64,000 nucleotides of DNA from Lentisphaeria bacterium (GTDB lineage: Bacteria > Verrucomicrobiota > Lentisphaeria > Oligosphaerales > CAITYL01). The notes beneath the pieces are model-generated. The model did no database searches. It saw only the letters and a list, made by a program, of their open reading frames with translations, and was not told the origin of the DNA. The stretch spans positions 6,530 through 70,529 of the forward strand of contig JBAZOO010000010.1 in NCBI GenBank assembly GCA_041648735.1, read 5' to 3'. Of this stretch, positions 3,876-57,790 are shown piece by piece (position 1 is the first letter of the stretch; each line of letters starts with the position of its first letter). The position numbers and the translations under genes are program-made.

Positions 3876-3959
3876 ACCCTGCGGACTCCGCAAAACCCTC
3901 CGCCCAATATAGCCCCGGTTCCCACCCCGCGGAACCGGCGGGCGGCGGGCGGCGGGCCG

Positions 3960-3990
3960 CCCTGCCGTCCCTGCCGTCCCTGCCGTCCCT
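3960..3990. repeat. Tandem 9-mer repeat (ccctgccgt, 3 full copies plus a partial one)
   Basis: Read directly: gccctgccgtccctgccgtccctgccgtccctggggg. Its reverse complement (ggacggcagg) recurs at 61840-61892. Confidence 0.9.
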
Positions 3991-4078
3991 GGGGGAGCAA
4001 CTGGCCCCGGCCCATGCAGCCTGGGTTCAGCTCTGCCGCCGTCTGGCGCAACCGCCGGTTCCGCATCCGGACCTGATC

Positions 4079-11450: not shown

Positions 11451-11851
11451 GCCTTTGCTCCTTTGTCTGGCCCCTTGAGTGCCGGGGCATCCGCCAGGCG
11501 GGCCTTCGGGGGGATGCCTGGTTGCCTTCGGGGGTGGAGCCGCGAAGAGACAACACCGAGGAATGTATCCGTCACGGGCCACCGCCGCCAGCGGCCAGGA
11601 GGGGCAATTATCAGGACGTCCGGATACCGCCATTCTGGCGCGGCCCGGCAAGCGACACCACCGGTTTGGACGTCCCCCTGCCGGGGTGCTGACATTCTCC
11701 GTCCCATGGCCGGTGGTGTCGCTGCGCTCAACCGCCGGCTACCGGCGGTGACACCGCCGGTGTCCATCCCGCTTCCCCATTTGGAGGTTGGATATTCTTT
11801 GCTGGATATTGGATGTTGAAGGACGCACGGCCCCGACTCCGGCAGAGGTTT

Positions 11852-11925
11852 CCACCCGGCGCGCCGCGGGTTCTTTTCGGCAGCGGCATTGGCAGCGAAA
11901 ACTTGGTTCCGGCTATGCCGGGTCA
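11852..11925. repeat. ~74-bp repeat, left copy (inverted partner at 13104..13178)
   Basis: The sequence ccacccggcgcgccgcgggttcttttcggcagcggcattggcagcgaaaacttggttccggctatgccgggtca aligns by eye to the reverse complement of 13104..13178 with only scattered mismatches. Confidence 0.85.
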
Positions 11926-11976
11926 GGGATGGGTGTGAAGTTATTTTGCAACGGCCCCTTACGCTCCGTCGCGGCA

Positions 11977-13026
11977 TTATTCCGGCTTCGGGATCAGCAG
12001 GGTGCGGCCGGGATGCCACGAGCCGCGGATGATCGTATCCCGGGCAATCCTGGGCACGCCGAACTGGCGGCTGCGCATGAAAGAAACCACCAGTTCCGCG
12101 GCGATGGCGCCCGTTTCCCGCCGGTTGGAACAGACGCCGGCCCAGTCGCTGACATCGTCGTCGGTGGCGAGGTGGACGACGCCGACGTCCATGGGAACAC
12201 GAAACCCGGCCGCCTCCACGCACGCCACAAGCCGATTGCTCTGGCACACGACCACGTCGGGCTTGCAGCGCGACAGCCACGCCACAATCTGTCGTTTCGC
12301 CGCGGGCCAGCGGGTTGGCACTTCATTATAAAACAGGGGCGGAACGGTGTTGCATTCCGGAATCGTCGCCTGGAAATGGTGTGCCGCGATCCGGCAGGCG
12401 TGATCCGTGCCGCGGTCGAAATCGTCGGTAAGACAGATGCCAATCCGTTGATAGCCGCCGCGCTTCACCATCTTGAGGGCGAGGAGAAAATTATAGTATA
12501 AATCGGCCGTGATCCGGTGGAGATGCGGCACGAGCAGATTTTTGCCGATGGAGACGCCGGCCAGGCGATCCCAGTCGAGCTGGAGATGGGTGGCGGTGGG
12601 GGTGACAATGACCCCCTCGATCCCCCGCCGGTGGAGCCGCCGGGAAAGGCGCGGCATGGTCATGCCGGGCTCATGGAGCCAGATTTCCTCCAGCCGGTAG
12701 CCAAGCTGCCGGGCGCGCTCGCGGGCGCCTTCCAGGTAAGGCGCGTGGAATTGGTATTTCTGCCAGGCGTCTTGTTCCAGGTTGGTGTTCAGCCAGGCAA
12801 TGGGCAGAAGTTCCTTGGTGGCGGCTTCCCGCACACTTGCCATCACCGAGGCAATGCGGGCATCCGGCACATAGCCGAGCTGTTTGGCAAGGCGTAGCAC
12901 CCGGGCCTGGGTCGCCGGGTTGACGCCGGGATGGTTCCGCAACGCATCGCTCACGGTGGTCTTGGAGATTCCCGCGGCCACGGCAATGGCCCGGATGCTG
13001 ACTCGTTGAAGGTTGTTTTTCTTCAT
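11977..13026 (-). CDS. LacI-family transcriptional regulator
   Basis: The ATG at 13026 gives MKKNNLQRVSIRAIAVAAGISKTTVSDALRNHPGVNPATQARVLRLAKQLGYVPD, a LacI helix-turn-helix. A periplasmic-binding-like sugar-sensor domain follows. Confidence 0.85.
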   Translation of the reverse strand: MKKNNLQRVSIRAIAVAAGISKTTVSDALRNHPGVNPATQARVLRLAKQLGYVPDARIASVMASVREAATKELLPIAWLNTNLEQDAWQKYQFHAPYLEGARERARQLGYRLEEIWLHEPGMTMPRLSRRLHRRGIEGVIVTPTATHLQLDWDRLAGVSIGKNLLVPHLHRITADLYYNFLLALKMVKRGGYQRIGICLTDDFDRGTDHACRIAAHHFQATIPECNTVPPLFYNEVPTRWPAAKRQIVAWLSRCKPDVVVCQSNRLVACVEAAGFRVPMDVGVVHLATDDDVSDWAGVCSNRRETGAIAAELVVSFMRSRQFGVPRIARDTIIRGSWHPGRTLLIPKPE

Positions 13027-13103
13027 CTTTGTCCGTGTAGGCCAGCGTATTCCAAAGCGTGACAAAGATATGCTAAACGGTATATTGGAAAATGCCAACT
13101 CCC

Positions 13104-13178
13104 TACCCCGGCATAGCCGGAACCGAGTTTTCGCTGCCGATACCGACCCCGAAAAGAACCCCGAGGCGCGCCGGTAAG
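13104..13178. repeat. ~74-bp repeat, right copy (inverted relative to 11852..11925)
   Basis: See the left copy. Both copies give the same artefactual peptide RKLGSGYAG in the ORF track (ORFs 11788..12501 + and 13023..13457 -). Confidence 0.85.
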
Positions 13179-13281
13179 GCATTTTCCCCCTCTCCCCAAG
13201 CTCCGCAAATTGCGGCGGCGGCGGCGCGGCCTATATTCCAAACGGTCGTTCGGATCCTGGAGAACTGGCAACGGTGGGCTG

Positions 13282-14415
13282 ATGGGGCGCCAAATGCAGG
13301 AAACGGCAGCGGCGGCAAGTTGGCAGGTGCGGGAGGGAGTGGCGTTCCTGGCCGGCCGGCTGGACGCCGCCGGGGCCGCCGCGCTCTGGCCGGTTTTGCG
13401 GCTGCCGCCGCCGCCCGCCGCCGGAGCCGCCCTCCAGGTTGACGCCAGCGGCGTCACCTACTGCGACGGCGCCGGGCTCGCACTGCTGCTCCAGCTCCAG
13501 CGCCTGGCCGCCGCCGCCGGCTGCGGACTCCGCATCACCGGCCTGGCGGAAGGGGCGGCCCGGCTGCTGGCCCCCTTCGACCCGGCCGGCTATGCCGAAG
13601 TCGGCGAACCGCCGCCGCGGCCGGTGAAGCTGCCCGCCCAGGTGGGCGAGGCCGCCCATGCCATTGGCCGCGACCTGGTGGCGCTGCTGGCCTATGTCGG
13701 CGAACTGACGGCCATGCTGGCCCGGGCACTGCGGAATCCGCGGCGAATCCGCTGGCGGGACGTGACACTGGTCGCGGAGACCGCCGGCACCGACGCGCTG
13801 CCGATCGTCCTGCTGGTCGGGTTCCTGCTCGGGCTGATCCTGGCCTTCCAGGCGGCGATCCCGATGCGGATGTTCGGCGCGGACCTGTTCGTCGCCAGCC
13901 TGGTCGGCATCTCCATTGTCCGCGAGCTGGGGCCGCTGATGACGGCGATCGTGCTCACCGGCCGCTCCGGCTCGGCCTTCGCCGCCGAGATCGGCACGAT
14001 GACCGTCAACGAGGAGGTGGACGCCCTGGCCACCATGGGGCTGGAGCCGGTGTGGTTCCTGGCGGTGCCGCGGGTGCTGGCCGGAACCGTGGTGACGCCG
14101 CTGCTGACGATCTTCGCGAACCTGGCGGGGCTGGCCGGCGGGCTGGTGGTGATGCTGGTGCTGGGCTTCCCCTTCGTCACCTACGTGAACCAGATCAAGG
14201 AGTTCGTGGGCTGGGGCGACCTGGCCGGGGGGCTCGCCAAGGCGGTGGCCTTCGGCTTCCTGGTCTCGGCCATCGGCTGCCTGCGCGGGCTCCAGACCGG
14301 GCGCGGCCCCAGCGCCGTGGGCGCCGCCACGACCCGCGCGGTGGTCAGCGGCATTGTCCTGATCACGGTGGCCGACGGCCTCTTCGCCGTCCTCTTCCAT
14401 TGTCTTGGCTGGTGA
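13282..14415 (+). CDS. mlaE: MlaE-type ABC permease with N-terminal STAS domain
   Basis: A STAS-like N-terminus (WQVREGVAFLAGRLD...VDASGVTYCDGAGLALLLQLQRL) is followed by a multi-TM MlaE-like permease. The start is ATG 13282 or 13294. Confidence 0.8.
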   Translation: MGRQMQETAAAASWQVREGVAFLAGRLDAAGAAALWPVLRLPPPPAAGAALQVDASGVTYCDGAGLALLLQLQRLAAAAGCGLRITGLAEGAARLLAPFDPAGYAEVGEPPPRPVKLPAQVGEAAHAIGRDLVALLAYVGELTAMLARALRNPRRIRWRDVTLVAETAGTDALPIVLLVGFLLGLILAFQAAIPMRMFGADLFVASLVGISIVRELGPLMTAIVLTGRSGSAFAAEIGTMTVNEEVDALATMGLEPVWFLAVPRVLAGTVVTPLLTIFANLAGLAGGLVVMLVLGFPFVTYVNQIKEFVGWGDLAGGLAKAVAFGFLVSAIGCLRGLQTGRGPSAVGAATTRAVVSGIVLITVADGLFAVLFHCLGW

Positions 14416-44886: not shown

Positions 44887-46226
44887 TGTTCCCCACCTTC
44901 CACATCCGCACCTACGGCTGCCAGATGAACGAGCGCGACTCGGAGGCGGCCGCCTGCCTGCTGGAAAGCCGCGGCTTCCGCCCAGTGGCGACGGAGGCCG
45001 AGGCGGACGTGCTGCTCTTCAACACCTGCAGCGTCCGCGACCAGGCCGAGCAGAAGGCCCTCGGCAAGCTCGGGCTGCTCCAGCGGCTCAAGCGGGAGAA
45101 GCCGCACCTGCTGCTCGTCGTCCTCGGCTGCATGGCCCAGCGCCTCGGCGAGGAGCTGCCCGCCAAAATCCCGCACGTGGACCTGGTGGTCGGCACCGAC
45201 CAGCTCCCGAGCCTGCCCGACCGGCTCATCGAGCTGCTGGAGCACCGCCGCCCCGGCGTCTACACCGGCCGCACCAGCGAAGGGATCGAGATGCTCGGCC
45301 TGCACGCACCGGGGAAAATTTCGGCCTTTGTCGCGGTCATGCGCGGCTGCAACATGGGCTGCAGCTACTGCATCGTCCCGGAAACCCGGGGGCGGGAGAA
45401 GAGCCGCGCCGTGGCGGACATCGTGGCGGAAGTGGCGCGGCTGGTGGCCGGCGGCGCCAAGGAGATCATGCTGCTCGGCCAGAACGTCACCGCCTACGGC
45501 GTCAGCGAACTCCGCCAGGCCGGCGGCTACACGCCGGACCAATCGCCCTTCGCCGAGCTGCTGCGGGCCGTCTGCGCCGTGCCGGGGCTGCGCCGGCTGC
45601 GCTTCACCTCGCCGCACCCGCACTTCATGAACGCGGCCTTCGTCCAGGCGCTGGCGGAGCTGCCCCAGGTCTGCGACTCCTTCCACGTGCCGCTCCAGTC
45701 TGGCGCCGACCGCATCCTGGCGGCGATGAAGCGCAACTACACCGTGGCGGAATACCGGCAACGCCTCGCCGCCATCCGCGCCGTGCGCCCCGCGGCCGCC
45801 TTCTCCACCGACATCATCGTCGGCTTCCCCGGCGAGACCGACGCCGACTTCGCCGCCACCCGGGAGCTGATGGCGGAGATCGGCTTCGACATGGCCTACG
45901 TCTTCCGCTATTCCCCGCGCCCCGGCACCCTGGCCGACCGCCGCCTGGCCGACACCGTCCCCCCCGAGGTCAAGGAGGCGCGGCTGAAGCTGCTCCTGGC
46001 CGACCTCGAGCGGCGGGTGCTGGCCCACAACCAGGCGCGGCTCGGCCAGACCGTGGAGATCATGCTCGAAGGGCCGAGCCCGCGCAACCCCAGCCGCTGG
46101 TGCGGCCGCACCAGCGACAACAAGCGGGTGGTCGTGCCGCCCGCGCCGGAGATGGAACCGGGGCAGTTCCGCAGCTTCCGCATCACCCGCGCCACCGCCC
46201 ACACCCTCTACGGCGAACCCGCCTGA
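44886..46226 (+). CDS. miaB: tRNA-2-methylthio-N6-dimethylallyladenosine synthase (radical SAM methylthiotransferase)
   Basis: The start is MFPTFHIRTYGCQMNERDSE (UPF0004 domain). The radical-SAM motif is CNMGCSYC. A C-terminal TRAM domain is present. Confidence 0.9.
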   Translation: MFPTFHIRTYGCQMNERDSEAAACLLESRGFRPVATEAEADVLLFNTCSVRDQAEQKALGKLGLLQRLKREKPHLLLVVLGCMAQRLGEELPAKIPHVDLVVGTDQLPSLPDRLIELLEHRRPGVYTGRTSEGIEMLGLHAPGKISAFVAVMRGCNMGCSYCIVPETRGREKSRAVADIVAEVARLVAGGAKEIMLLGQNVTAYGVSELRQAGGYTPDQSPFAELLRAVCAVPGLRRLRFTSPHPHFMNAAFVQALAELPQVCDSFHVPLQSGADRILAAMKRNYTVAEYRQRLAAIRAVRPAAAFSTDIIVGFPGETDADFAATRELMAEIGFDMAYVFRYSPRPGTLADRRLADTVPPEVKEARLKLLLADLERRVLAHNQARLGQTVEIMLEGPSPRNPSRWCGRTSDNKRVVVPPAPEMEPGQFRSFRITRATAHTLYGEPA

Positions 46227-46279
46227 AGCTGGGGCCTTCGCCGCCGGCCGCTGGCAATCCGCGCCCCCTGTACTATGGT

Positions 46280-46294
46280 TTGCGTAATACGCAA
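46280..46294. promoter_or_regulatory. Perfect 15-bp palindrome TTGCGTA-A-TACGCAA upstream of padR (candidate PadR operator)
   Basis: Read directly. It sits 66 bp upstream of the padR ATG and is immediately preceded by tactat, a possible -10. Its function is inferred. Confidence 0.4.
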
Positions 46295-46359
46295 TCAGAA
46301 GTAGCAGGGCCGCCCGGGCAAGCCGGGTGGCCGGAAACGGGAAGGCAAGCACGGAACCG

Positions 46360-46689
46360 ATGGACGGCTGGGTCACCCAACTGCGCAAGGGACTGCTGGA
46401 GTTCTGCATCCTCAACCTCCTCCGCCGCGGCGAAAGCTACGGCTACGAGATCGTGCGGAAACTCCAGCCGGCGGAGGTGCTCGCCGTCTCCGAAAGCACG
46501 GTCTACCCGATCCTCAGCCGGCTCAAGCAGGATGGTTGCCTGAAGGTTCGCGACCTCCCCTCCCCCGGCGGTCCGCCGCGCCGCTATTTCGCCCTCACCG
46601 CCAGCGGCCGCGCCCGCCTCGCCGAAATGAACGCCTACTGGGGGGAGTTGACCGCCGAACTCGACCGCCTCCGGAAGGGGGAGAAGTGA
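46360..46689 (+). CDS. padR: PadR-family transcriptional regulator
   Basis: The winged-helix sequence is LRKGLLEFCILNLLRRGESYGYEIVRKL....SESTVYPILSRLKQDGCLK...RRYFALTASG. Confidence 0.85.
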   Translation: MDGWVTQLRKGLLEFCILNLLRRGESYGYEIVRKLQPAEVLAVSESTVYPILSRLKQDGCLKVRDLPSPGGPPRRYFALTASGRARLAEMNAYWGELTAELDRLRKGEK

Positions 46690-46809
46690 AATTGTGGGAA
46701 AAAAACCAGGCCTTCCAAAGACGAATCGCCATTGAAAAAACCAACGGCTTGGGCTTTCGTCTGGTTTCGTGTGTTTAGTGGGGAAAATCGAGGAACCGGG
46801 GACGGGACC

Positions 46810-49800
46810 ATGACTCTCGACACATCCATGCAGGACAGGATCAGGACGTATCTGGACGCGGTGGCGGCACAGATCCGCAACCGCCCCGCGGCCGCGCGGC
46901 GCGAACTGCTGCGCGACCTGGAAACGCATCTGCATGACGCACTCCGCGCCAAGGGCGGGGCGAACCCGACCCCGGAACAGCTCGACGCCGTGCTCGCCGA
47001 AATGGATCCGCCGGAGGCCTTTGCCGCCGCGGAGTCCGCAACCACCGCCGCGGGCGGCCCCCAGCCGGAGCCGTGGCGACGCCGGCTCTGCCTGCTCGGG
47101 CTGTGCTTCCTGATGCTGAACGGCGCCTGGTTCGGGCTGTGGCTGCAACGGAACCTCGGCGGCGGCCTGCCGGACACGCAAAAAGCCGAGGCCCCCAGCG
47201 GCGCCGTGAGCGTGACCGGCGCCGAGCCGCTGTCCTGGACCTTTCCCACGCCGATGGTGGAAAAAGACGCCTGCGGCATCCCGCTCAAGACGCCGCCCGC
47301 CAAGATCGCGCCCACCGTGGCCGGCGTCTGGAAATGGGAAGACCCGCTCACCTTGGCGTTTTCCCCCGCGGCGCCGTGGCCGGACTGCTCCCGTTTCCAG
47401 GTGGCGTTCACCGCCCCGCTGCGCACCGCGGCGGGGCGGCGGGTGGAGCCGCCGGAACTCACGACCGTGGCAACGCCGGCGCTCGAGCTGGTGAACGTGC
47501 GACAGGTCGACGTCGAACCGGGCGATTACGGTTACGGTTTCAACATCCGGCTGGAGCTGGAATTCAACGCCCCGCCAGACTTGGAATCCCTGAAGGAATC
47601 CCTCTCCTTCGCCTATCGCGACCAGCAAGAAAGCAAGCCCGCGAATTTTGAGCTGCTCGGGAATGTCCTCGACCGCCGGATCCTGGTGACGGTGACGGAA
47701 AACGAACCCGATCTCCGAACCCTGCGCCTGCAGCTCAATGCCGGCCTGCGCCCGGCCAGCGGCGGCGAACGCGGCCTGGCCAGCGCCGCCACCCGCGAGG
47801 TGCCGTTGACCGATCTTTTCCGGATGGGCGAAGCGGTGGCCTCCAGCCCCGCCTTCGGCCCGTGCGAACTGCGCCTGCGTTTCACCAAGAAACCCGACTT
47901 CAACACGGTCAAGGACGCGGTGGAGATCAAGCCGAAGGTGGAGTTCACCGTCAATCCGGACGGCGGCTATTACAACACGCTGACGCTCACCGGCGTCTTT
48001 GAGCCGGAGAAAATCTATGAAGTGACGGTGCGGACGGCGCTGCGGGCGGAAGGCGGCGCGGCGCTGGTGACGGAAGTGAAGCGCAGCGTGCAGTTCCCGG
48101 CGCGCAAGCCGTCGCTGGCCCTGGCATCGGAAGGGCGCTACCTCTCGCCGCGCGGGAACCTGACCGTCCCGCTCGCGGCCGTGAACATCCCCGCCTGCAA
48201 GATCACCTTGCGCCAGGTGCTGCCGCAGAACCTGCCCTTCTTCGCCCTGCGCGACGGCGGTTGGCGCGGCGACGAGGACGCGGCCAACTCCCTGACCGGC
48301 CCGGCCGTGACCCGGACCGTCGCGCTCAAGGGAAAGGCCAACGCGGAGGTCAAACAGCGGCTGGATCTCCGCGACTTTGCCGGCACCGGCGACCTGCGCG
48401 GCGCGTGGCTGCTCTCGGTGGAACCGCCGGAGGAGATGGCGCGGCTGGACTGGGAACGCCGGCCGTGGCCGGTACACCGGCTGCTGGTGGTCAGCGATCT
48501 GGGCGTCACCGTCAAGACCGGCGCCAAACAGGGCGCCGTGGTCTGGGTCAATTCGCTGCGGGATGCGCAGCCGGTCGCCGGCGCCCAGGTCGTGCTCTAC
48601 GGGAAGAACAACGCCGAACTGGCGCGCGGCCTCACCGGCGCCGACGGCGTGGCGCGGCTGGAGGCGGACACCGCCAAGCCGGAAGCCCAACCGTTCCTGG
48701 TGACGGCGGCGGCGGGCGCCGACTTCACCTTCCTGCCCCTGCGGAAGTCGGAAGTCCAGCAGCTAGGGGACACTGGCGGCAAAGAGTGGCTGGCCACGGA
48801 CGCCGTGGAGGCGGCGCTCTTCACCGGCCGCGGCATCTACCGGCCCGGCGAGACGTTGCACGTCAAGGCGTTGGTCCGCAACCGAACCCTCGACGCGCCG
48901 CCGCCATTCCCCGCCGTGTTCCGCATCTTCAAGCCGGACGGCAAAGTCTTCCGCGACCTCCCGGTGACGTTGAACGACTTGGGCGCCGCGGAAGGCGAGG
49001 CGGAACTGCCAACCTTCCTGCCGACCGGCGGCTACCGCGTCGCCCTGGCCATGCCGGGAACCTTCACCGTCCTCGGGGAGACCGCAATCCGGGTCGAGGA
49101 GTTCGTGCCGCCGCAAATCACGGTGGAAATGGAGAAGCTGCCGGAGCGCGCCGAGACTGGCAAGCCGTTCACCTTCGAAGTCGCCTCGCGGCACCTGTTC
49201 GGGCGGGCGGCGGATGGGCTCCGGGCCGAGGCGCGCGTCGTGTTCGAAGCGGTGGAGTTCCGACCCAAGCAGTGGCCGGGCTGGCGGTTTGCGGATGACG
49301 CCCGGAGCTGGAGCACCACCCGGCGCGAATTGGGGAGCCAGACCCTGGATGCCGACGGCAAGGCGGTGTTCACGGTGGAGGCGCTGGGCGACGTGCGGCC
49401 GCCCGCCACCCTGGTCGCGCACCTGCACGCCACGGTGCTGGAGCCGGGCGGGCGGCCAGTGTTCGCCTACCGGCGGGTGCCGGTGGATCCCTATCCGTAT
49501 TACCTTGGCCTCAAGCTCGACACGGACGGCGGGCACCTGCGCCTCGGCGAGACCCACAAGGTGCAAGTGGCCGCGGTGGCGCCCGACGGCGCCAAGGCCC
49601 GGCCGCAGACCAACCGGCTGAAGGCCATCCTGACCCGCGTCTACTGGAACAACACCATGCAGCGCAACGACAGCGGCAGCTACGCCTGGCGTTCCGAGCG
49701 CGTCTACCAGACGGAAACGGAAGGGACCGTGGAACTGGCGGACGGCACCGGCGGGTTCGCCTTCGCCCCCCAACAGGCCGGCGAATACCGGCTGACGGTG

Positions 49801-52602
49801 AGCGATCCCTTCACCGGCGTCTCCTCCAGCGTCGCCTTCCTGGCGGCGGCGCCGGACCAGAGTTGGGTGAGCTGGGCGCATGACCAGCCGGACCGCGTCG
49901 AGCTGAGCTTGGACAAGCCACGCTACCGCCCCGGCGACAAGGCGAAGCTGGCCATCAAGGCGCCGTTCAGCGGCCCGGCGCTCCTGACGCTCGAAAGCGA
50001 CCGCGTGCTCGAGCACCGCCGCCTCGTGATCGAAAAGAACACCGCCGAAATCGAGCTGGATGTCCGTGCGGAGTTCGCCCCCAACGTCTACGCCACGCTC
50101 AGCCTGATCCGGCCGGCGGTCGCGGAAGCCGTCTGGTCGGCGCACCGGGCCGTGGGCGCCGTGGCGCTCAAGGTCGAACCGGCGGACCGGCGGCTGAAGG
50201 TGGAACTGACGGCACCCGCGGAAATCCGGCCGCAAACCGACTTGACGGTGCAGCTCCAGACCCGCGACGAACAGGGGCGCGGCGTGCCGGGCGAAGTCAC
50301 GCTCATGGCCGTTGATGAAGGCATCTGCCAATTGACGGACTACCAGACGCCCGAGCCGCTGGCGGAATTCCTGGCGCAACGGCGGCTGGCAGTGGCGCAC
50401 AGCGACCTCTACAGCCTGCTCATGCCGCCGCTGGCGGACGAGGCGGCGGACGGCGCGGCCGCCCACCCCGGCGGCGACGCAGCCGCCCGCCTGCTCATGC
50501 GCCGGCTCAACCCCCTGCGCGCCAACCGCTTCAAGCCCGTGGCCCTGTGGCTGGGGACAGTGCCCACCGCCGCGGACGGCCGCGGCGCGGCGGTGCTGAA
50601 AGTGCCGGAATTCACCGGGCAGCTCCGGCTGATGGCAGTCGCCTACGACCGCGCCCGCCTCGGCGCCGCCGAACAGCCGGTCAAGGTGAAGCGGCCGCTG
50701 GTCGTGCAGCCGGCGCTGCCGCGCTTCGCGGCGCCCGGGGACCGTTTCCAGGCCAGCCTCGTGATCTTCAACGAGACCGGCGCGCCGCGGACCGTCACCT
50801 GGCGCGTGACCTGCGGCGGCCCGCTCGCCGCGGCGAAGCCGGAAGGCGTCCTGCAACTTGCCGCCGGCGCGTCGCAACAGGTGCCGGTGGAACTGACGGC
50901 CGGCGCCGTGCCGGGCAAGGCGCTCTGCACCGTGCAGGTGACGGCCGGCACGGAACGCTACGAAGAGACGATCGAGCTGCCGGTGCGTCCCGCCGCCGCT
51001 CCCGTGACCCTGGCCTTTGCCGGCAGCCTCGCCCCGGGCGCCGGGTTCGTCCAGCCCGTCCCCGCGGAACTGATGCCGGAAACGGCGCACTGGGAAATGC
51101 AGGCCGGCGGCCAACCGGAAGTGAAGCTCTTGCGCAGCCTGGACAGCCTCCTGCGCTATCCCTACGGCTGCCTGGAACAGACCACCTCCTCGGCCTTCCC
51201 GCTGCTGGTGCTGGAAGACCTCGTCTCGACCATGCGGCCCCAGGCGCTGGCCAGGGGCGAGCCCGCGCCGTTCGTCAACGCCGCGATCCTCCGCATCCTG
51301 GCCATGCAGACTTCCGACGGCGGCTTCAGCATGTGGCCAGGCAGGCGCGACTCCGCCGGCTGGGCCGGCACCTATGCCACCCATTTCCTGGTGGAAGCAA
51401 AGAAGGCCGGGTACGAAGTGCCGGGCGACCGGCTCGCCCTCGCCATGGAGTGGCTGCGCCGGCGGCTTGACCAGCAGGTGCGCCGCAATGAAAACCCCAA
51501 TGACCCCATCTGGCAGGACGAGATGGAGGAGCGCGCCTATGCCTGCCTCGTGCTCGCCCGCGCCGGCCGGCCAAACCACAGTTGGCTGGCGCGCCTGCAC
51601 GAATTGCGCGGCAAGCTGCGCACCGGCGCCAAGGTCCAGACGGCTCTGGCCCTGCTCTACGCCGGCGAGCCGAAGGCCGCCGCCACGCTGCTGGACGCCG
51701 CCGCCGCTCCCGCGGAGTCCGCACCCGCCACCGCCGCCACCGCCCCGGCCGCTGGCGCGCCGCCGCCCGCAGCCGCCGCGATGAGCGTGCCGGCGAGCCG
51801 GACGCGCGACCTGGCGCTGCTGCTCGCCGCCCGGGTCGAACTCGACCCGCGCCATCCGCAGGTCGCCGAACTCGTGACGCGCCTGGACCAGGCGATGAAG
51901 AACGGACACTGGTACACGACGCAGGAGGACGCCATGGCCCTGCTGGCCCTCGGGAAATACGCCCGCGCCCTACCGGCGGACAAGACGCCGTTCCAAGCCA
52001 CCCTGACCGTGGACCGGAACGCCCCGCCCCAGCGCTTCGACCGCGACCACCCGCTGGCCTGGGCTTCGGCCAAGCCGGGCGAAGCCGCGCAAGTCGCGCT
52101 GAAGAACGACGGGCCGGGCACCTGCTTCTATTCCCTGCGGCTCGAAGGCGTCCCAGCGCACGGCAGGGTTGCCGAGGGCGACTGGGGCGGGCTGAAGGTA
52201 CGGCGCGAGTTCCTGGACGGCCAGGGGAAGCTCCTCGCCAAATCCGAATGCGCGCTGGGCGACCGCGTGACGGTGCGGCTCACGCTGGAAAGCGACAACT
52301 GGATTCCCAACGGCCTCGTGCTCTGCGACCTGCTCCCGGCCGGCCTGGAGATCGAGAATCCGTCAACGCCGCCGGAGGGGCAAAGCAACGCCCACGACTG
52401 GGTGCTGTACCGTGATGTGCGCGACGACCGGCTGCTGCTCTTCACCGGCTGGTTCCCCGCCGGGACGCGCAGCTACACCTATGCGGCGCGCGCCGTGACC
52501 GCCGGCCGCTTCCGCCTGCCGGCCGTCACCGCCGAAGCGATGTACGACCCCGCCATGCACAGCGCCCACGGCCAGGGCGAACTGGCCATCCGGGAGAAAT
52601 AA
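46810..52602 (+). CDS. Bacterial alpha-2-macroglobulin (thioester-containing) with N-terminal DUF1700/HAAS-like helical module and a single TM anchor
   Basis: About 1930 aa. The N-terminus is MTLDTSMQDRIRTYLDAVAAQIRNRPAAARRELLRDLETHLHDALRAKGG...LAEMDPPEAFA, followed by the TM helix LCLLGLCFLMLNGAWFGLWL. MG-domain repeats follow. The thioester motif is YPYGCLEQTTSS. It has an A2M receptor-binding-like C-terminus. pbpC follows, as in the classical yfhM-pbpC pair. Confidence 0.85.
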   Translation: MTLDTSMQDRIRTYLDAVAAQIRNRPAAARRELLRDLETHLHDALRAKGGANPTPEQLDAVLAEMDPPEAFAAAESATTAAGGPQPEPWRRRLCLLGLCFLMLNGAWFGLWLQRNLGGGLPDTQKAEAPSGAVSVTGAEPLSWTFPTPMVEKDACGIPLKTPPAKIAPTVAGVWKWEDPLTLAFSPAAPWPDCSRFQVAFTAPLRTAAGRRVEPPELTTVATPALELVNVRQVDVEPGDYGYGFNIRLELEFNAPPDLESLKESLSFAYRDQQESKPANFELLGNVLDRRILVTVTENEPDLRTLRLQLNAGLRPASGGERGLASAATREVPLTDLFRMGEAVASSPAFGPCELRLRFTKKPDFNTVKDAVEIKPKVEFTVNPDGGYYNTLTLTGVFEPEKIYEVTVRTALRAEGGAALVTEVKRSVQFPARKPSLALASEGRYLSPRGNLTVPLAAVNIPACKITLRQVLPQNLPFFALRDGGWRGDEDAANSLTGPAVTRTVALKGKANAEVKQRLDLRDFAGTGDLRGAWLLSVEPPEEMARLDWERRPWPVHRLLVVSDLGVTVKTGAKQGAVVWVNSLRDAQPVAGAQVVLYGKNNAELARGLTGADGVARLEADTAKPEAQPFLVTAAAGADFTFLPLRKSEVQQLGDTGGKEWLATDAVEAALFTGRGIYRPGETLHVKALVRNRTLDAPPPFPAVFRIFKPDGKVFRDLPVTLNDLGAAEGEAELPTFLPTGGYRVALAMPGTFTVLGETAIRVEEFVPPQITVEMEKLPERAETGKPFTFEVASRHLFGRAADGLRAEARVVFEAVEFRPKQWPGWRFADDARSWSTTRRELGSQTLDADGKAVFTVEALGDVRPPATLVAHLHATVLEPGGRPVFAYRRVPVDPYPYYLGLKLDTDGGHLRLGETHKVQVAAVAPDGAKARPQTNRLKAILTRVYWNNTMQRNDSGSYAWRSERVYQTETEGTVELADGTGGFAFAPQQAGEYRLTVSDPFTGVSSSVAFLAAAPDQSWVSWAHDQPDRVELSLDKPRYRPGDKAKLAIKAPFSGPALLTLESDRVLEHRRLVIEKNTAEIELDVRAEFAPNVYATLSLIRPAVAEAVWSAHRAVGAVALKVEPADRRLKVELTAPAEIRPQTDLTVQLQTRDEQGRGVPGEVTLMAVDEGICQLTDYQTPEPLAEFLAQRRLAVAHSDLYSLLMPPLADEAADGAAAHPGGDAAARLLMRRLNPLRANRFKPVALWLGTVPTAADGRGAAVLKVPEFTGQLRLMAVAYDRARLGAAEQPVKVKRPLVVQPALPRFAAPGDRFQASLVIFNETGAPRTVTWRVTCGGPLAAAKPEGVLQLAAGASQQVPVELTAGAVPGKALCTVQVTAGTERYEETIELPVRPAAAPVTLAFAGSLAPGAGFVQPVPAELMPETAHWEMQAGGQPEVKLLRSLDSLLRYPYGCLEQTTSSAFPLLVLEDLVSTMRPQALARGEPAPFVNAAILRILAMQTSDGGFSMWPGRRDSAGWAGTYATHFLVEAKKAGYEVPGDRLALAMEWLRRRLDQQVRRNENPNDPIWQDEMEERAYACLVLARAGRPNHSWLARLHELRGKLRTGAKVQTALALLYAGEPKAAATLLDAAAAPAESAPATAATAPAAGAPPPAAAAMSVPASRTRDLALLLAARVELDPRHPQVAELVTRLDQAMKNGHWYTTQEDAMALLALGKYARALPADKTPFQATLTVDRNAPPQRFDRDHPLAWASAKPGEAAQVALKNDGPGTCFYSLRLEGVPAHGRVAEGDWGGLKVRREFLDGQGKLLAKSECALGDRVTVRLTLESDNWIPNGLVLCDLLPAGLEIENPSTPPEGQSNAHDWVLYRDVRDDRLLLFTGWFPAGTRSYTYAARAVTAGRFRLPAVTAEAMYDPAMHSAHGQGELAIREK

Positions 52603-52615
52603 GCGGCAGGCGACC

Positions 52616-54967
52616 ATGAGCGGACGAACACGGACCAACACGGACAGGCACGGACGGGGACGGCGCTGGCGGCGCGCAGTCTGCCTCGGCCTGGCGGGCG
52701 GGATCGCGGCCGGGGCGCTGTTCGCCGGCGCATGGTTCGCGTTCCCCTTTCCGCGGGCGGAACTGGAACGCTACCCGCGGGCCACGGTGCTCACCGACCG
52801 GACCGGCGCGCCGCTGCGGGTCAAGCTCGGCCCCGGCTCCGCGGACTGCCGGCCGCTGCTCCGGCCGGATCCGGATTCCTGGATCGCCAAAGCCGTGGTC
52901 GCCACGGAGGACCGGCGGTTCTGGCGCCACCCCGGCGTGGATCCGCTGGCCATCCTGCGCGCCATCTGGCAGAACCTCACGCACCGGCGGCGCATCTCCG
53001 GCGCCTCCACCCTCACCACGCAGCTCATCCGCCAGCTTGACGACCGGCCGCGGACGCTCCCCACCAAGATCAGCGAAGCCTTCCGCGCGCTCCAGCTTGA
53101 GCGCCTCCTCACCAAGGAGGAAATCCTCGAGCAATACCTGAACCGGGTGCCGTTCGGCTCGAACCTGACCGGCATCGAGGCGGCCAGCCGGCGCTACTTC
53201 GGCAAGGATCCGCGGCAGCTCAGCCTGGCGGAGGCGGCGCTGCTGGCGGGGTTGCCGCAGTCGCCCACCCGGCTGCGGCCGGACCGCTTCCCGGACCGGG
53301 CCAAGGCGCGGCAGGCCGTGGTGCTGAAGCGGATGCGCGCCTGCCGCATGATCACCGCCGCGGAACAGGCGACGGCCCTGGCCCAGCCGCTGGCGGTGCG
53401 GACAAACCGCTATCCGTTCCGGGCACCGCACTTCTGCGACCTCGTGCTGGAAAATCTCCACGCCGGCGCCCCCGCCCCCGTGCGGGACCGCGGCGACGCC
53501 GCCTTCACCCGCCGCACCACGCTCGACCCGGAACTCCAGCGGCTTGTCGAGGCGGAAGTCGCGCGGCACCGGGACGAGTGGCGCCGGCAGGGCATCGCCG
53601 GCGCGGCCGTGGTCATGCTGGAAGTGGAAACCGGAGCGGTGCGCGCCCTCGTCGGCTCGCCGGACTACCACGACCGGGAACACCACGGACAGGTCAATGC
53701 CGCCCTGGCGCCGCGCTCGCCGGGTTCGGCCTTGAAACCATTCTTCTATGCGCTGGCCATGGACCAGGGGCGGCTGACCCCAGGGCGGGTGCTGGCCGAC
53801 GTGCCGCGGCAGTTCCGCAACTATTGCCCGGAAAACTTCGACAGCCGTTTCACCGGCCTCGTCACGGCCCGCGAGGCGCTGGTCCTTTCCCTGAACCTGC
53901 CGGCGCTGGCGGTGCTGGAAGAGGCCGGACAACCGGCCGCCCTCCAGATGCTGCGCCGCCTCGGCCTGGACACCCTGGATCGGCCGGCGGAGCATTACGG
54001 CCTCGGCCTGGCCGTCGGCGACGGCGAGGTGCGGCTTCTGGACCTGGCCAACGCCTACGCCGGCCTGGCCCGCGGCGGCATCTGGAAGCGGTGGCGCGTG
54101 CTCGCGGACGGCGGCGGCGCGCCACCGCCGCCAATCCGGGTTTTCTCGCCGGAGGCCTGCTGGCTGGTCGCGGACATGCTCGGCGGCGACGAGCGCGCCA
54201 TGAGCGCCACCGGGCACCGGGCCGACGTGATGAGCCTGCCCAAGTTTGCCTGGAAAACCGGCACCTCGGCCGGGTTCCGCGACGCCTGGACCATCGCTTG
54301 GAATCCCCAGTGGGTCATCGCCGTCTGGCTGGGCAATCCCGACGGCCGCCCCGCCCCGGCCCTCGTGGGGACAGAGGCGGCCGCGCCGCTGGCCTGGGAA
54401 CTGGTGCGCGAACTCTACCGCAACGGCGACTCGCCGTGGTACGTGCGGCCGGCCGGCGTCCAGTGCCGCGGCGTCTGCGCCGTCAGCGGCCTGCCGCCGG
54501 GGCCGCATTGCCCGCAAACCATTGCGGACGACTGCATCGCCGGCGTGACCCGCCACGAGGTCTGCGGCGTCCACCGCCTGCAAGTGCTCGCCCGCGACGA
54601 CGCCGGCCGGCCGGTGCGGACGGCGGTGCGCGAGATCTGGCCACCCGAAGTCGCGGCGTTCCTGGCCCAGGCAAAACCGGCGGCAAACAAGCCGACAGCC
54701 ACGGCGGGGCCGCGCATCCTTTCGCCGGCCCGCGGCACGGTCTTCCGGCTGGTGGACGGGGCGTTGGCGGAATCCCAGCGGCTGAACCTCCTCGCCGCTC
54801 CCGGCGACGGCGGGGACGGCCGCCTTTTCTGGCTGCTCGACGACCACCCCCTCGGAGAAAGCGCCGGCGCGGCGCCGCTCGCCTGGCCCCTCGCCCGCGG
54901 CCGGCACCGCCTCGTCTGCAGCGATGCCCGCGGCCGCTCCGACTCCGTCGAAATCACCGTGGAATGA
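52616..54967 (+). CDS. pbpC: Penicillin-binding protein 1C (bifunctional GT51 / transpeptidase-like)
   Basis: The GT51 motifs are ATEDRRFWRHPGVD and GASTLTTQL. The transpeptidase motifs are SPGSALKP (SxxK) and WKTGTS (KTG). A C-terminal PBP1C-specific domain is present. Confidence 0.9.
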   Translation: MSGRTRTNTDRHGRGRRWRRAVCLGLAGGIAAGALFAGAWFAFPFPRAELERYPRATVLTDRTGAPLRVKLGPGSADCRPLLRPDPDSWIAKAVVATEDRRFWRHPGVDPLAILRAIWQNLTHRRRISGASTLTTQLIRQLDDRPRTLPTKISEAFRALQLERLLTKEEILEQYLNRVPFGSNLTGIEAASRRYFGKDPRQLSLAEAALLAGLPQSPTRLRPDRFPDRAKARQAVVLKRMRACRMITAAEQATALAQPLAVRTNRYPFRAPHFCDLVLENLHAGAPAPVRDRGDAAFTRRTTLDPELQRLVEAEVARHRDEWRRQGIAGAAVVMLEVETGAVRALVGSPDYHDREHHGQVNAALAPRSPGSALKPFFYALAMDQGRLTPGRVLADVPRQFRNYCPENFDSRFTGLVTAREALVLSLNLPALAVLEEAGQPAALQMLRRLGLDTLDRPAEHYGLGLAVGDGEVRLLDLANAYAGLARGGIWKRWRVLADGGGAPPPPIRVFSPEACWLVADMLGGDERAMSATGHRADVMSLPKFAWKTGTSAGFRDAWTIAWNPQWVIAVWLGNPDGRPAPALVGTEAAAPLAWELVRELYRNGDSPWYVRPAGVQCRGVCAVSGLPPGPHCPQTIADDCIAGVTRHEVCGVHRLQVLARDDAGRPVRTAVREIWPPEVAAFLAQAKPAANKPTATAGPRILSPARGTVFRLVDGALAESQRLNLLAAPGDGGDGRLFWLLDDHPLGESAGAAPLAWPLARGRHRLVCSDARGRSDSVEITVE

Positions 54968-55138: not shown

Positions 55139-56452
55139 ATGGGCTTGACCCGACCGACACGCCAACCTCTGCTCCGGGCGGCGCTGGGCCTTTTCTTCGG
55201 CGCCGCCGCGGCGGCCGCCAGCGACAACGGCCGGCTGCGGCTGGAACTGCCCGAGAACCTCAGCGGCTTCTGGGAAGTCCGCGCCGGCGCCCGCACCCAG
55301 CCCGATCCGCACGCCACCGACCTGAGCCTCGCCGAAACCCGCCTGCAACTGCGCTACGAGGCGGAATTCGAGGCCGCCACCGTCAAGCTCGTGCCCGATT
55401 TCCTCTACGACGGCGTTGACGGCCAGCGCCGCCTCGACCTCGAAACCGGCCAGGGCTGGCTCGACCTGCGCGAGGCCAACGCCCTCTTCCGCCCCGGCGA
55501 CGCCCTCGACCTCAAGATCGGCCGCCAAATCCTGACCTGGGGCACCGGCGACCTGCTGTTCATCAACGACCTCTTCCCCAAGGACTGGAACGCCTTCTTC
55601 AGCGGCCGCGACCAGGAATACCTCAAGGCCCCCTCCGACGCCGTCAAGCTCTCCCTCTTCCACGACCTCGCCAACCTCGACCTCGTCTTCACCCCCTGCT
55701 TCGACCCCGACCGCTTCATTGACGGCCGCCGCATCTCCTACTGGAATGCCGCCCGCGACGACCGCGCCGGCGACGACGCCATCGTCGCGGCCGACCGCCC
55801 CAACCGCTGGTTCCGCGACTTCGAGCTGGCCGCCCGCCTCTACCGCAACCTCCACGGCTACGAACTGGCGCTCTACGGCTACCGCGGCTTCTGGAAAAGC
55901 CCCGCCGGCAGCGACCCAGCCACCGGCAACGCCACCTTCCCCGACCTCAACGTCCTCGGCGCCAGCGCCCGCGGCACCGTCGGCCGCGGCATCGGCCACG
56001 CCGAGATCGGCTGGTACGACTCCGCCAACGACCGCGCTGGCGACGACCCGTTGGTGCGCAACAGCGAACTCCGCCTGCTCCTCGGCTACGAGCAGGAACT
56101 CTGGCCCGACTTCACCGCCGGCGTCCAATACTACCTCGAATGGATGCAGCAGTACGGCGCCTACCGCGACGCGCTGCCGCCCGGCGCCCACGCCGCCGAC
56201 GAGTTCCGCCACGTCACCACCCTGCGCCTCACCCAGAGCCTGCTCCAGCAGAACCTCACCTGCTCCCTCTTCCTCTTCCTCTCCCCCAGCGACCACGACG
56301 CCTACCTCCGACCCAGCGTCAACTACAAGCTCACCGACACTTGGCAGGCCGAGGCCGGCGCCAACCTCTTCTTCGGCGAAGACCCCTGGAGCTTCTTCGG
56401 CCAGTTCGAACGCAACAACAACCTCTACGCCAGCCTCCGCGCCTCCTTCTGA
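55139..56452 (+). CDS. Outer-membrane beta-barrel protein (alginate-export / DUF1302-like porin candidate)
   Basis: The signal is MGLTRPTRQPLLRAALGLFFGAAAAAA. The sequence has an alternating beta-strand pattern. It contains IGRQILTWGTGDLLFINDLF, resembling the GRQ..WG motif of alginate-export-type barrels. The C-terminal YASLRASF ends in Phe, which is an OMP signature. Confidence 0.6.
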   Translation: MGLTRPTRQPLLRAALGLFFGAAAAAASDNGRLRLELPENLSGFWEVRAGARTQPDPHATDLSLAETRLQLRYEAEFEAATVKLVPDFLYDGVDGQRRLDLETGQGWLDLREANALFRPGDALDLKIGRQILTWGTGDLLFINDLFPKDWNAFFSGRDQEYLKAPSDAVKLSLFHDLANLDLVFTPCFDPDRFIDGRRISYWNAARDDRAGDDAIVAADRPNRWFRDFELAARLYRNLHGYELALYGYRGFWKSPAGSDPATGNATFPDLNVLGASARGTVGRGIGHAEIGWYDSANDRAGDDPLVRNSELRLLLGYEQELWPDFTAGVQYYLEWMQQYGAYRDALPPGAHAADEFRHVTTLRLTQSLLQQNLTCSLFLFLSPSDHDAYLRPSVNYKLTDTWQAEAGANLFFGEDPWSFFGQFERNNNLYASLRASF

Positions 56453-56567
56453 CCAAGCCCCGCCCGCGCCACCCGGCGGGAACCTGGCCGCCCTTTGCCG
56501 ACTCCAAACAGCAACACGCCACGCCGTCCCGCCGAGGCCCAACCGCAATCCGGAAAGGAACCCCACC

Positions 56568-56945
56568 ATGGCCGAGTTCATCAACCCCTTCACCGGCGTC
56601 ATCCCCGGCCGCAAGCTCAGCCACCGGGAGCTGGTCCGCGCCATCCGCGCCACCCTGGCCGCCGAACATGAGGCGGTCCACATGTACGAGGCGATCGCCG
56701 ACGCCACCGACAACCCCGTCGCCAAGGCCATTCTCCAAGACATCGCCAACGAGGAGAAGGTCCACGCCGGCGAGTTCATGCGCGTCCTGCAAATCCTGGC
56801 GGCCGACGAGGCCGGGTTCTACGCCGAAGGCGCCGCCGAAGTCGATGCCGAACTGGCCAAGGAGGGCATCCGCCCCGCGGCGGCGGCCGCCGCCGACGCC
56901 AGCACCCCGGCCGAACCGCCGGCCATCGGCGCCCTCAAGCCCTGA
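56568..56945 (+). CDS. Encapsulated ferritin (EncFtn) cargo protein with C-terminal encapsulin targeting peptide
   Basis: The start is MAEFINPFTG..LSHRELVRAIRATLAAEHEAVHMYEAIA...ILQDIANEEKVHAGEFMRVL, with two ExxH di-iron motifs. An Ala-rich linker leads to the terminal PPAIGALKP, resembling the TVGSLK-type targeting peptide. Only the last 125 codons of ORF 55719..56945 are real. Confidence 0.8.
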   Translation: MAEFINPFTGVIPGRKLSHRELVRAIRATLAAEHEAVHMYEAIADATDNPVAKAILQDIANEEKVHAGEFMRVLQILAADEAGFYAEGAAEVDAELAKEGIRPAAAAAADASTPAEPPAIGALKP

Positions 56946-56986
56946 ACCTCTCCCGCCCCCGCAACCCATCCCAAACGAGGCCAACC

Positions 56987-57790
56987 ATGAGCAAATTCCT
57001 GCACCGTGACGACGCCCCCTTCGCCGCCGCCATCTGGAACAAGATCGACGAAACCGTCGTCCAGGCGGCCAAAAGCCAGCTCGGCGCCCGCCGGCTCCTG
57101 GCGGTGGAAGGCCCCTTCGGCCTCGGCCTGAAAGCCCTCCCCGGCCCGGACCGGCCGGTCAGCGAGGCCAACGGCGTCCGCCTCCAGGCCCCCGGCCTGA
57201 CCCCCGTCGCCCAGCTCCAGGCCAGCTTCCGCCTCACCGCCCGCGACCTCGCCGCCTTCGAGGCCGACGGCGTCACCCTCGACCTCGGCCCCGCCGCCCA
57301 TGCCGCCCTCGCCCTGGCCCGCCAGGAGGACGAACTGCTCTTCACCGGCTGCAAGCCCCTCGGGCTGGAAGGGCTCGCCACCGCCAAAGGCACCCTCAGC
57401 CACAAGCTCCGCTCCTGGGACACCGTCGGCACCGCCGCCGAGGACATCATCCGCGCCATCACCGGCCTCGACGCCGCCGGCTTCCACGGCCCCTTCACCC
57501 TCGGCCTCTGCCCGGCCCTCTTCAACCAGCTCTTCCGCCAGACCCCGGCCAACGGCGGCACTGAACTCCAGCACCTCGCCCAGGCCGTGGCCGCCGGCAT
57601 CGTCAAGATCCCCGCCCTCGCCACCGGCGGCGTGCTGCTCAACGCCGGCGCCTGGGTCGCCGCCATCGTCCTCGGCCAAGACATCCAGGCCGGCTTCGTC
57701 GGCCCGGACGCCGGCGAGTATCACTTCACCATCAGCGAGAGCCTGGCCCTGCGCCTCACCGTGCCCAAGGCAATCTGCATCCTCAAGTGA
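56987..57790 (+). CDS. Family-1 encapsulin shell protein (HK97 fold, linocin M18-like)
   Basis: 267 aa. The start is MSKFLHRDDAPFAAAIWNKIDETVVQAAKSQLGARRLLAVEGPFGLG. The end is GEYHFTISESLALRLTVPKAICIL. Both the N-terminal and C-terminal patterns are typical of family-1 encapsulins. It lies directly downstream of the EncFtn gene. Confidence 0.85.
   Translation: MSKFLHRDDAPFAAAIWNKIDETVVQAAKSQLGARRLLAVEGPFGLGLKALPGPDRPVSEANGVRLQAPGLTPVAQLQASFRLTARDLAAFEADGVTLDLGPAAHAALALARQEDELLFTGCKPLGLEGLATAKGTLSHKLRSWDTVGTAAEDIIRAITGLDAAGFHGPFTLGLCPALFNQLFRQTPANGGTELQHLAQAVAAGIVKIPALATGGVLLNAGAWVAAIVLGQDIQAGFVGPDAGEYHFTISESLALRLTVPKAICILK

Follow-up and report, generated by a model that had tools for sequence, protein, structure and literature searches.

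Organization of the padR-A2M-pbpC locus

Three genes lie in series on the + strand (46360-54967) of a 64,000-nucleotide stretch of Lentisphaeria bacterium DNA (contig JBAZOO010000010.1, assembly GCA_041648735.1), which is referred to below, at its full length, as the window. They are padR, a gene encoding a thioester alpha-2-macroglobulin (A2M) and pbpC, and all three were found at the positions and on the strand given in an earlier, model-made reading of this DNA (the original prediction).

The padR gene (46360..46689, +) encodes a short PadR-family winged-helix repressor of 109 aa. Its product matched PF03551 with 74.8 bits (cut-off 27 bits), and its best PDB matches were stand-alone PadR regulators of 100-117 aa (top match 5h20, E 1.3e-22); it has both the winged-helix domain and the short one-domain form of this family. 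Translation might instead begin at an in-frame GTG at 46327, but the ATG at 46360 gives the MDGW(V/I)TQLRKG N-terminus common to all orthologues and was taken as the start.

The A2M gene (46810..52602, +) encodes a protein of 1930 aa, which was assigned as a fusion of a HAAS module and a transmembrane (TM) helix with a Type I thioester A2M on the basis of its Pfam domain set and PDB homologues. The PF03551 open reading frame (ORF) ends 120 nt 5' of it on the same strand, as had been claimed for padR. The spacer between the two genes (46690..46809, +) had, like the padR leader, no match in Rfam and is poorly conserved relative to a homologous locus with 81% identity (L089), in which it measures 224 nt; the 129-nt stretch that spans it (46687-46815) folded no better than its shuffles (z = +1.09). 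The third gene, pbpC (52616..54967, +), starts 13 nt past the A2M stop and encodes penicillin-binding protein 1C (PBP1c), as indicated by the Pfam domains Transgly, Transpeptidase and BiPBP_C and by an equivalog-level match of 635.9 bits to TIGR02073 (PBP_1c; cut-off 494.2 bits).

The A2M protein has the Pfam domains bMG3, MG2, bMG5, bMG6, A2M_BRD, A2M, TED (a TED_complement match) and bMG10. The bait-region domain (PF07703 A2M_BRD, 87.2 bits) occupies residues 1030-1175 (49897..50334, +), and a motif search of the translation located the thioester motif CLEQ at residues 1454-1457 (51169..51180, +), with C1454, E1456 and Q1457 invariant in 16 homologues. Residues 397-1920 matched SaA2M of Salmonella (4u48) and YfhM of E. 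coli (5a42) with E values of ~1e-100, and residues 113-396 had no counterpart in the PDB alignment. The A2M-pbpC pair is therefore intact and retains its CLEQ thioester, as predicted, and on the published classification it belongs with the Type I A2M/PBP1c pairs (PMC5764988). With an invariant CxEQ motif and a bait domain, the protein is a candidate for trapping proteases covalently once its bait is cut. The defence-and-repair role of such pairs is still described as a hypothesis (PMC5764988).

The HAAS module and predicted topology of the A2M N-terminus

The N-terminus of the A2M protein carries a HAAS module at residues 13-74 (46846..47031, +), which matched PF22564 with 36.2 bits when residues 1-147 were used as the query and with 31.4 bits when the full protein was used (cut-off 27 bits). 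The match spans the profile from position 1 to position 55 of 55, and this Pfam comparison confirmed the suggestion that the first ~70 residues are HAAS/DUF1700-like. An AF2 model built with 11 homologues placed helices at residues 5-21, 27-49, 55-64 and 69-79, a disordered segment at 79-89 (pLDDT <50) and a further helix at 89-116, with pLDDT of 80-85 over residues 10-60. The third helix is broken at D66-P67-P68 and resumes past the break, helix 55-64 continuing as 69-79. In the model, the N-terminus thus appears to match the published description of HAAS, with three helices of which the third is kinked at a conserved motif; the motif reads DxP here, not GxP, with no variation at D66 or P68 in the alignment.

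Other searches with this region were less informative. A Foldseek comparison of the N-terminal model with the PDB gave a best E value of 0.36, which is not meaningful, and the HAAS alignment, used for a profile search of the PDB, returned no credible match and did not recover 2O3L. A sequence search with the first 330 residues alone found no match, and the full-length protein was used instead; the N-terminal alignment as a query returned only five short matches, mostly fragments on tiny contigs.

A single TM helix follows at residues 92-112 (47083..47145, +), preceded by RRR and containing a conserved central Asn. It is the only segment of the protein with a hydropathy score above 1.4 (KD19 = 1.81), and no lipobox was found in residues 1-140, in agreement with the claim of one TM helix and no lipoprotein signal. 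The lipoprotein signal of A2Ms of the YfhM/SaA2M type is thus missing; the hydrophobic segment begins only at residue 92, after a helical N-terminus of 90 residues. Relatives without HAAS likewise have a TM anchor that appears uncleaved. By the positive-inside rule, the HAAS module would be cytoplasmic and the trap periplasmic, the location that trap function needs. The predicted periplasmic part comprises ~1815 aa, somewhat less than the ~1850 aa given originally. Between the HAAS module and the TM helix there is no in-frame ATG, GTG or TTG, the nearest methionine codon being M102, inside the helix, and therefore the trap can be made and exported only as a fusion.

Co-occurrence of padR and the HAAS module

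In order to survey relatives, one genome per species was scanned, which gave 80 more loci, nearly all from metagenome-assembled genomes (MAGs) of Lentisphaerota/Victivallales, Kiritimatiellia and Verrucomicrobiota. Loci were scored with profiles built from seed sequences; 81 were assessable, and eight with too little upstream sequence were set aside. HAAS and PadR were both present at 53 of the 81 loci and both absent at 28, and neither was found without the other (HAAS+/PadR- 0, HAAS-/PadR+ 0). The padR gene was immediately upstream in every one of the 53 HAAS-bearing A2M loci and in none of the 28 HAAS-less, TM-anchored relatives, so that the claimed adjacency extends well beyond the window. 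The points of sequence on which the original prediction had staked itself thus came out in its favour: in place of an ordinary signal peptide or lipobox there is a HAAS-like N-terminus, and the adjacency to padR is conserved.

The same division was seen in the full-length search, in which homologues from 81% down to ~43% identity carry the HAAS N-terminus and those at 37-39% identity have a short tail and the same TM helix without HAAS. Five HAAS-bearing A2M genes on long contigs each had a gene for a PadR of 112-114 aa directly upstream and pbpC downstream, in surroundings that were otherwise unrelated; two HAAS-less relatives that were examined had pbpC and no padR. Of 51 loci, 28 show an overlap of 4 or 17 nt between the padR stop and the A2M start, and a further 14 have the two separated by 0-30 nt, a classic operon structure. 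Among the assessable loci, pbpC was downstream of the A2M gene in 45 of 47 that bear HAAS and in 27 of 32 that do not. The fusion ORF is unbroken in the window, and 52 loci that were assembled independently have it unbroken too.

In a neighbour-joining (NJ) tree of the 1250 C-terminal residues of the A2M, HAAS-less lineages fell within the HAAS-bearing group at no fewer than five places (L032; L021 with L017; L010; a nine-member clade; L067), which indicates that padR and HAAS were lost, or gained, together repeatedly; the tree carries no support values and the count of joint events is provisional. Repeated joint change is much stronger evidence than one inherited association.

Several loci of the survey depart from the common arrangement. 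A subclade that includes loci labelled Luteolibacter (L029, L030, L039, L047 and L055) has longer HAAS-A2Ms, of ~2325-2330 aa. A stop codon or frameshift interrupts the A2M gene of L051 at ~5926-5930, and in L090 this gene falls into four or more gene calls and padR is split as well; both are pseudogenes or assembly errors. One apparent stand-alone HAAS protein (P0079) was rejected, its locus being a fragmented padR/A2M locus. The species label of L031 (CAMBQN010000003.1), a MAG labelled 'Akkermansia muciniphila', looks doubtful, and its A2M groups tightly with those of a Kiritimatiellia MAG (L035) and of an 'uncultured Akkermansia sp.' MAG (L063). The A2M gene and pbpC of L001 are separated by three additional genes (11559-13823), among them one for a periplasmic lysozyme inhibitor of the PliI family and one for a DUF3298 protein, and in L011 and L015 there is a similar gap of 1.8-1.9 kb before pbpC. 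In L001 at least, a PadR-controlled unit would join a protease inhibitor, a lysozyme inhibitor and a peptidoglycan synthase.

An operator-like element upstream of padR

A perfect 7-1-7 palindrome, TTGCGTAATACGCAA, lies upstream of padR at 46280..46294, with the core GTAATAC at 46284-46290, and is a predicted PadR operator. No second copy of it exists in the window. Perfect palindromes of 7-1-7 form number 17 there, this being the only AT-rich one, and the palindrome alone was therefore rejected as evidence. The original prediction was right that a perfect palindrome stands in the padR promoter region, and its position is conserved; taken by itself the palindrome is unremarkable, and its weight comes from conservation across relatives.

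Alignment of about 50 loci identified a common layout upstream of padR, which consists of TTGAC, TA(t/c)TAT, GTAttgcGTA-N-TAC, about 10 nt, cGGAGTAGc and the padR ATG. The window fits this layout base for base (TACTAT-ggt-ttgcGTAaTAC-gcaatcagaa-GTAGC). The hexamer TACTAT directly 5' of the palindrome (46271..46276, +) is the homologue of the TA(c/t)TAT box conserved in relatives and would be a -10-like element, and GAAGTAGC (46298..46305, +) is the counterpart, in the upstream alignment, of the Shine-Dalgarno-like cGGAGTAGc that directly precedes the padR ATG in relatives. In relatives, TTGAC and TAtTAT are 16 nt apart in the group of L001, L011 and L015 and 10 nt apart in a second group.

Of 51 loci, 42 have GTANTAC in the 60 nt that precede padR, compared with a background frequency in these loci of 0.0017 per 60 nt; of 22 HAAS-less A2M genes, only one has the sequence upstream. 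In the 64 kb it occurs at two sites, with ~5 expected by chance: the predicted operator, and 49497-49503 inside the A2M coding region (GTATTAC on the + strand, GTAATAC on the - strand), which is probably meaningless. In the subclade with longer HAAS-A2Ms, a different element stands upstream of padR, CACTACTCTGTAACGCGGAGTAGC, which is TAC-N3-GTA and not GTA-N-TAC.

A characterised PadR repressor, LftR of Listeria, binds GTAWTAC-N3-ATAC as a dimer (10.1101/2023.07.27.550809). The window has GTAATAC-GCA-ATCA, so that the heptamer alone is common to the two, with ATCA where LftR has ATAC. The predicted operator lies at or just past the -10-like box, a position that fits repression, and together these features make operator-based autoregulation of the locus likely.

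Comparison with known systems

The closest published arrangement is the dyad of HAAS and a PadR-like winged helix-turn-helix protein (Ravi et al., mSystems 2024, PMC11237479; PF22564), for which a role in place of two-component systems has been put forward, with HAAS proposed to pass a signal from fused domains to PadR (PMC11237479). The window likewise has a short stand-alone padR directly upstream of a gene for a predicted membrane protein with an N-terminal HAAS, modelled as three helices of which the third is kinked. The two differ in that the published partners of HAAS are PspC, LiaI-LiaF-TM, Toastrack, FtsX/MacB, FtsW/RodA, VanZ, other multi-TM domains and pentapeptide repeats (PMC11237479), whereas here a single-pass link leads to a thioester A2M of 1800 aa, which does not appear in the accessible portions of that paper's text and supplement; in addition, GxP reads D-x-P.

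Two Listeria systems offer characterised parallels. LftS is a DUF1048 protein of unknown function encoded in a bicistronic operon with lftR (PMC4517056); DUF1048 has been placed in the HAAS superfamily (PMC11237479), and induction of LftR requires LftS (10.1101/2023.07.27.550809). LltR is a repressor of the operon that holds its own gene, together with a gene for a DUF1700 membrane protein (PMC6624303). The PadR regulators of LftR/LftS and LltR-Lmo0600 are autorepressing, as is predicted for the locus; the heptamer core of the LftR operator is the same, and each system includes a HAAS-superfamily or DUF1700 protein (LftS, needed for induction, and the membrane protein of the LltR operon). They differ in belonging to a Firmicute, in having an ABC exporter and other membrane proteins as outputs, and in responding to an antibiotic as inducer.

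As for the trap itself, E. coli YfhM/ECAM and Salmonella SaA2M with PBP1c have the same CXEQ thioester, bait domain and MG/TED/MG10 set, with pbpC immediately downstream, and have been proposed to form a periplasmic defence-and-repair pair. Those solved homologues were deposited as inner-membrane lipoproteins, whereas the A2M of the window has a predicted N-in TM helix, a predicted cytoplasmic HAAS module and a repressor gene beside it. We know of no dedicated regulator beside the YfhM or SaA2M genes.

The original prediction had described both YfhM and Pseudomonas MagD as lipoproteins paired with PBP1C. The comparison with YfhM/SaA2M is apt; that with MagD does not hold, since MagD is a Type II A2M: it lacks the thioester, its gene belongs to the mag operon of six genes and is not accompanied by pbpC, and MagB keeps the protein at the membrane (PMC5764988). 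MagD is nevertheless a bacterial A2M that associates with the inner membrane and traps protease via a bait region, as is predicted of the A2M described here.

A functional analogy can also be drawn with RsiV-SigV and RseA-SigE, single-pass anti-sigma factors with extracytoplasmic sensors that signal by regulated proteolysis and not by conformational relay. Their layout, like the one predicted here, has a transcription factor held by an N-terminal domain in the cytoplasm, then a single TM helix, then a domain in the periplasm that encounters the threat. There is no kinship of sequence or fold, the partner here is a repressor and not a sigma factor, and proteolytic release is in the present case hypothetical.

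Proposed mechanism

These results make a functional coupling between PadR and the HAAS module very probable. We lean towards the broader interpretation that padR, the HAAS-A2M gene and pbpC constitute one autoregulated defence operon run by the PadR-HAAS dyad, which would carry a signal across the membrane in one step, with the state of the trap as its input; that protease attack is the trigger is a more tentative proposal.

According to this model, a PadR dimer would bind the GTAATAC-centred palindrome at 46280-46294 and repress padR, the A2M gene and pbpC, as suggested by the conservation of the element and by the characterised homologue. The A2M would be held in the inner membrane by its one N-in TM helix, with the trap of ~1815 aa in the periplasm and the HAAS module of 75 residues in the cytoplasm on a flexible tether. 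By analogy with LftR/LftS, HAAS would bind PadR and control its ability to repress. The input may be the state of the periplasmic A2M, which is a single-use trap; Type I A2Ms change conformation strongly on cleavage (PMC5764988). Bait cleavage and compaction, clustering of fired A2M, or clipping and turnover could change the availability or the grouping of HAAS modules. PadR would then be captured and the operon de-repressed, replenishing A2M and PBP1c, and newly made PadR and un-fired A2M might reset the circuit. Replacing spent traps while adding a peptidoglycan synthase would make biological sense.

The manner in which a signal might cross the membrane is constrained by the linker between the HAAS module and the TM helix, which is 7-38 residues long (median 19), of low complexity and predicted to be disordered. 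Its disorder and variable length favour tethering, avidity or proteolytic release over a piston-like relay, and a rigid piston or rotation through the membrane appears unlikely. The original prediction had implied a conformational relay from the A2M to PadR, which suits this linker less well. Fired traps might cluster and so present a bivalent HAAS to the PadR dimer, or spent A2M might be clipped and turned over, as happens with anti-sigma factors. In its most specific form the proposal treats the A2M as a protease receptor, in which trap firing would lead, via clustering or turnover, to PadR capture and hence to more trap and more of the wall repair enzyme; this form is possible but doubtful.

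Several observations weigh against the proposed circuit. The binding of PadR to the HAAS module and to DNA is, at this locus, predicted, and no rigid path for a conformational signal is apparent in the modelled linker. A strict sigma-70 scan of 46100-46900 found no promoter. The window has ~55 extra nt (46306-46359) between the GTAGC box and the padR ATG, and its 120-nt padR-A2M spacer is unlike the overlap or gap of up to 30 nt seen in 42 of 51 loci, so that a separate internal promoter for the A2M gene could lie within the spacer. The TM helix conforms approximately to the motif W-F-x-L-A-L-A-F-L-x-V-N-A-(W/Y)-G-V-W, with its central Asn, and this is kept in HAAS-bearing and HAAS-less A2Ms (L001-L088); since it is kept equally without HAAS, its conservation must serve something other than PadR signalling, and the conserved polar residue suggests a helix-helix contact, through self-association or with the anchor of PBP1c. 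Finally, close relatives of the HAAS module are found on unrelated ectodomains (Laminin_G_3, beta-helix, LRR and HEAT), and the signal may be generic, for example the state of the membrane or the biogenesis or level of the anchored protein.

Alternative explanations

The last of these observations bears on the strongest alternative, namely that the PadR-HAAS dyad is real and does not sense proteases. HAAS would instead report the amount, insertion or folding of the anchored protein, or envelope or membrane stress, and A2M and PBP1c would be only the outputs of a feedback or stress circuit. An exhaustive HAAS profile search found 1260 relatives at E <=1e-3, with about 16 A2M-sized clusters among the best 150. 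Very similar HAAS N-termini were also found on a Laminin_G_3+HEAT protein (P0155, 859 aa), a beta-helix/NosD protein (P0158, 1193 aa), a BspA-type LRR (LRR_5)+Big_5 protein (P0182, 901 aa) and a HEAT_2+Big_5 protein (P0137, 443 aa). Given such varied ectodomains, HAAS-TM appears to be, in these organisms, a general N-terminal regulatory anchor of large proteins, mostly of non-cytoplasmic type, and is not specific to protease traps; this diversity resembles that of a sensor family and is equally compatible with a generic input. The flexible linker suits titration better than a ligand-induced conformational change, the PliI gene in the operon of some loci is consistent with a general envelope-defence regulon, and HAAS was defined in envelope-stress (PSP/Lia) contexts (PMC11237479). 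However, no psp or lia envelope-stress genes adjoin the locus in the window, and a repressor titrated by the product of its own operon would give positive feedback with no obvious off-switch. A generic input also leaves unexplained why the fusion was kept on a single-use trap across Lentisphaerota, Kiritimatiellia and Verrucomicrobiota, and we consider this explanation rather unlikely.

It is a good deal less probable that PadR itself senses a small molecule, as LmrR or PadR do, and that HAAS only localises or stabilises PadR or is non-regulatory. Short PadR proteins such as LmrR bind ligands directly, and the nearest PDB relatives of the PadR encoded here are stand-alone regulators of this kind. 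The Trp of the MNAYW motif in the PadR C-terminal helix, which may be the counterpart of the ligand-clamp Trp of LmrR, is not kept in a number of orthologues (L001 and L002, for instance, have MRAHL), and this weighs against direct ligand sensing. For LftR, either sensing of the inducer by LftR alone or sensing together with LftS is possible (10.1101/2023.07.27.550809). The strict co-occurrence (53:0 and 0:28) and the repeated joint loss leave no retained role for PadR at these loci without HAAS.

A coincidence or annotation artefact, in which a separate small HAAS gene was mis-joined to the A2M ORF beside a chance padR neighbour, is effectively refuted by ORF continuity in the window and in 52 other loci, perfect co-occurrence, operon spacing and the lack of a start codon between HAAS and the TM helix, owing to which the trap could not be exported without HAAS; L090 does show HAAS as a separate 168-aa call, but that locus is degraded or error-ridden, with the whole A2M in pieces and padR split.

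Other features of the window

A weak match of the custom HAAS profile at 3761-5320, which might have been a second HAAS gene in the window, proved to be a SNF2-family helicase and was rejected as a false positive. Just downstream of pbpC, an encapsulin shell gene (Linocin_M18, 216 bits) was found at 56987-57790, and the C-terminal part of the product of the ORF that precedes it matched Rubrerythrin and EncFtn-like; these matches suggest that 55719-57790 encodes an encapsulated-ferritin cargo and shell pair.

Significance of the fusion

Each part of the locus belongs to a known family, and what is new is the wiring of a HAAS-PadR dyad to a thioester A2M/PBP1c unit. The original prediction had been aware of no such architecture. 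Literature searches for PadR with A2M or DUF1700, and for TM-anchored bacterial A2Ms in Verrucomicrobia, returned no description of the fusion, and the accessible parts of the paper that defined HAAS contain no A2M fusions. Public databases do already contain the fused proteins, and both Pfam domains are precomputed for them. The fusion is widespread in Lentisphaerota, Kiritimatiellia and Verrucomicrobiota, and throughout this clade a predicted TM anchor replaces the lipoprotein signal.

The papers on A2Ms that this analysis covered mention neither a regulator of the Type I A2M/PBP1c pair nor a signal that induces it (PMC5764988), and a whole clade with a dedicated repressor and a cytoplasmic module turns when and why the trap is made into a directly testable question. 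The finding also bears on the HAAS-PadR dyad, which was proposed from genome context alone and most of whose fused 'sensor' domains have no known stimulus (PMC11237479). The trigger of the A2M ectodomain, bait cleavage, is known and can be controlled, with thioester and bait mutants as controls, and the HAAS-less, padR-less sister genes are natural controls; the locus is therefore a good model for communication between HAAS and PadR. Should the input prove to be generic feedback or envelope stress, the fusion would still be a useful, if less striking, extension of the repertoire of the dyad. If the A2M does act as a protease receptor, it would be the first partner to give a HAAS-PadR dyad a biochemically defined input, and bacteria would have, in a protein akin to complement, their own equivalent of a protease-activated receptor.

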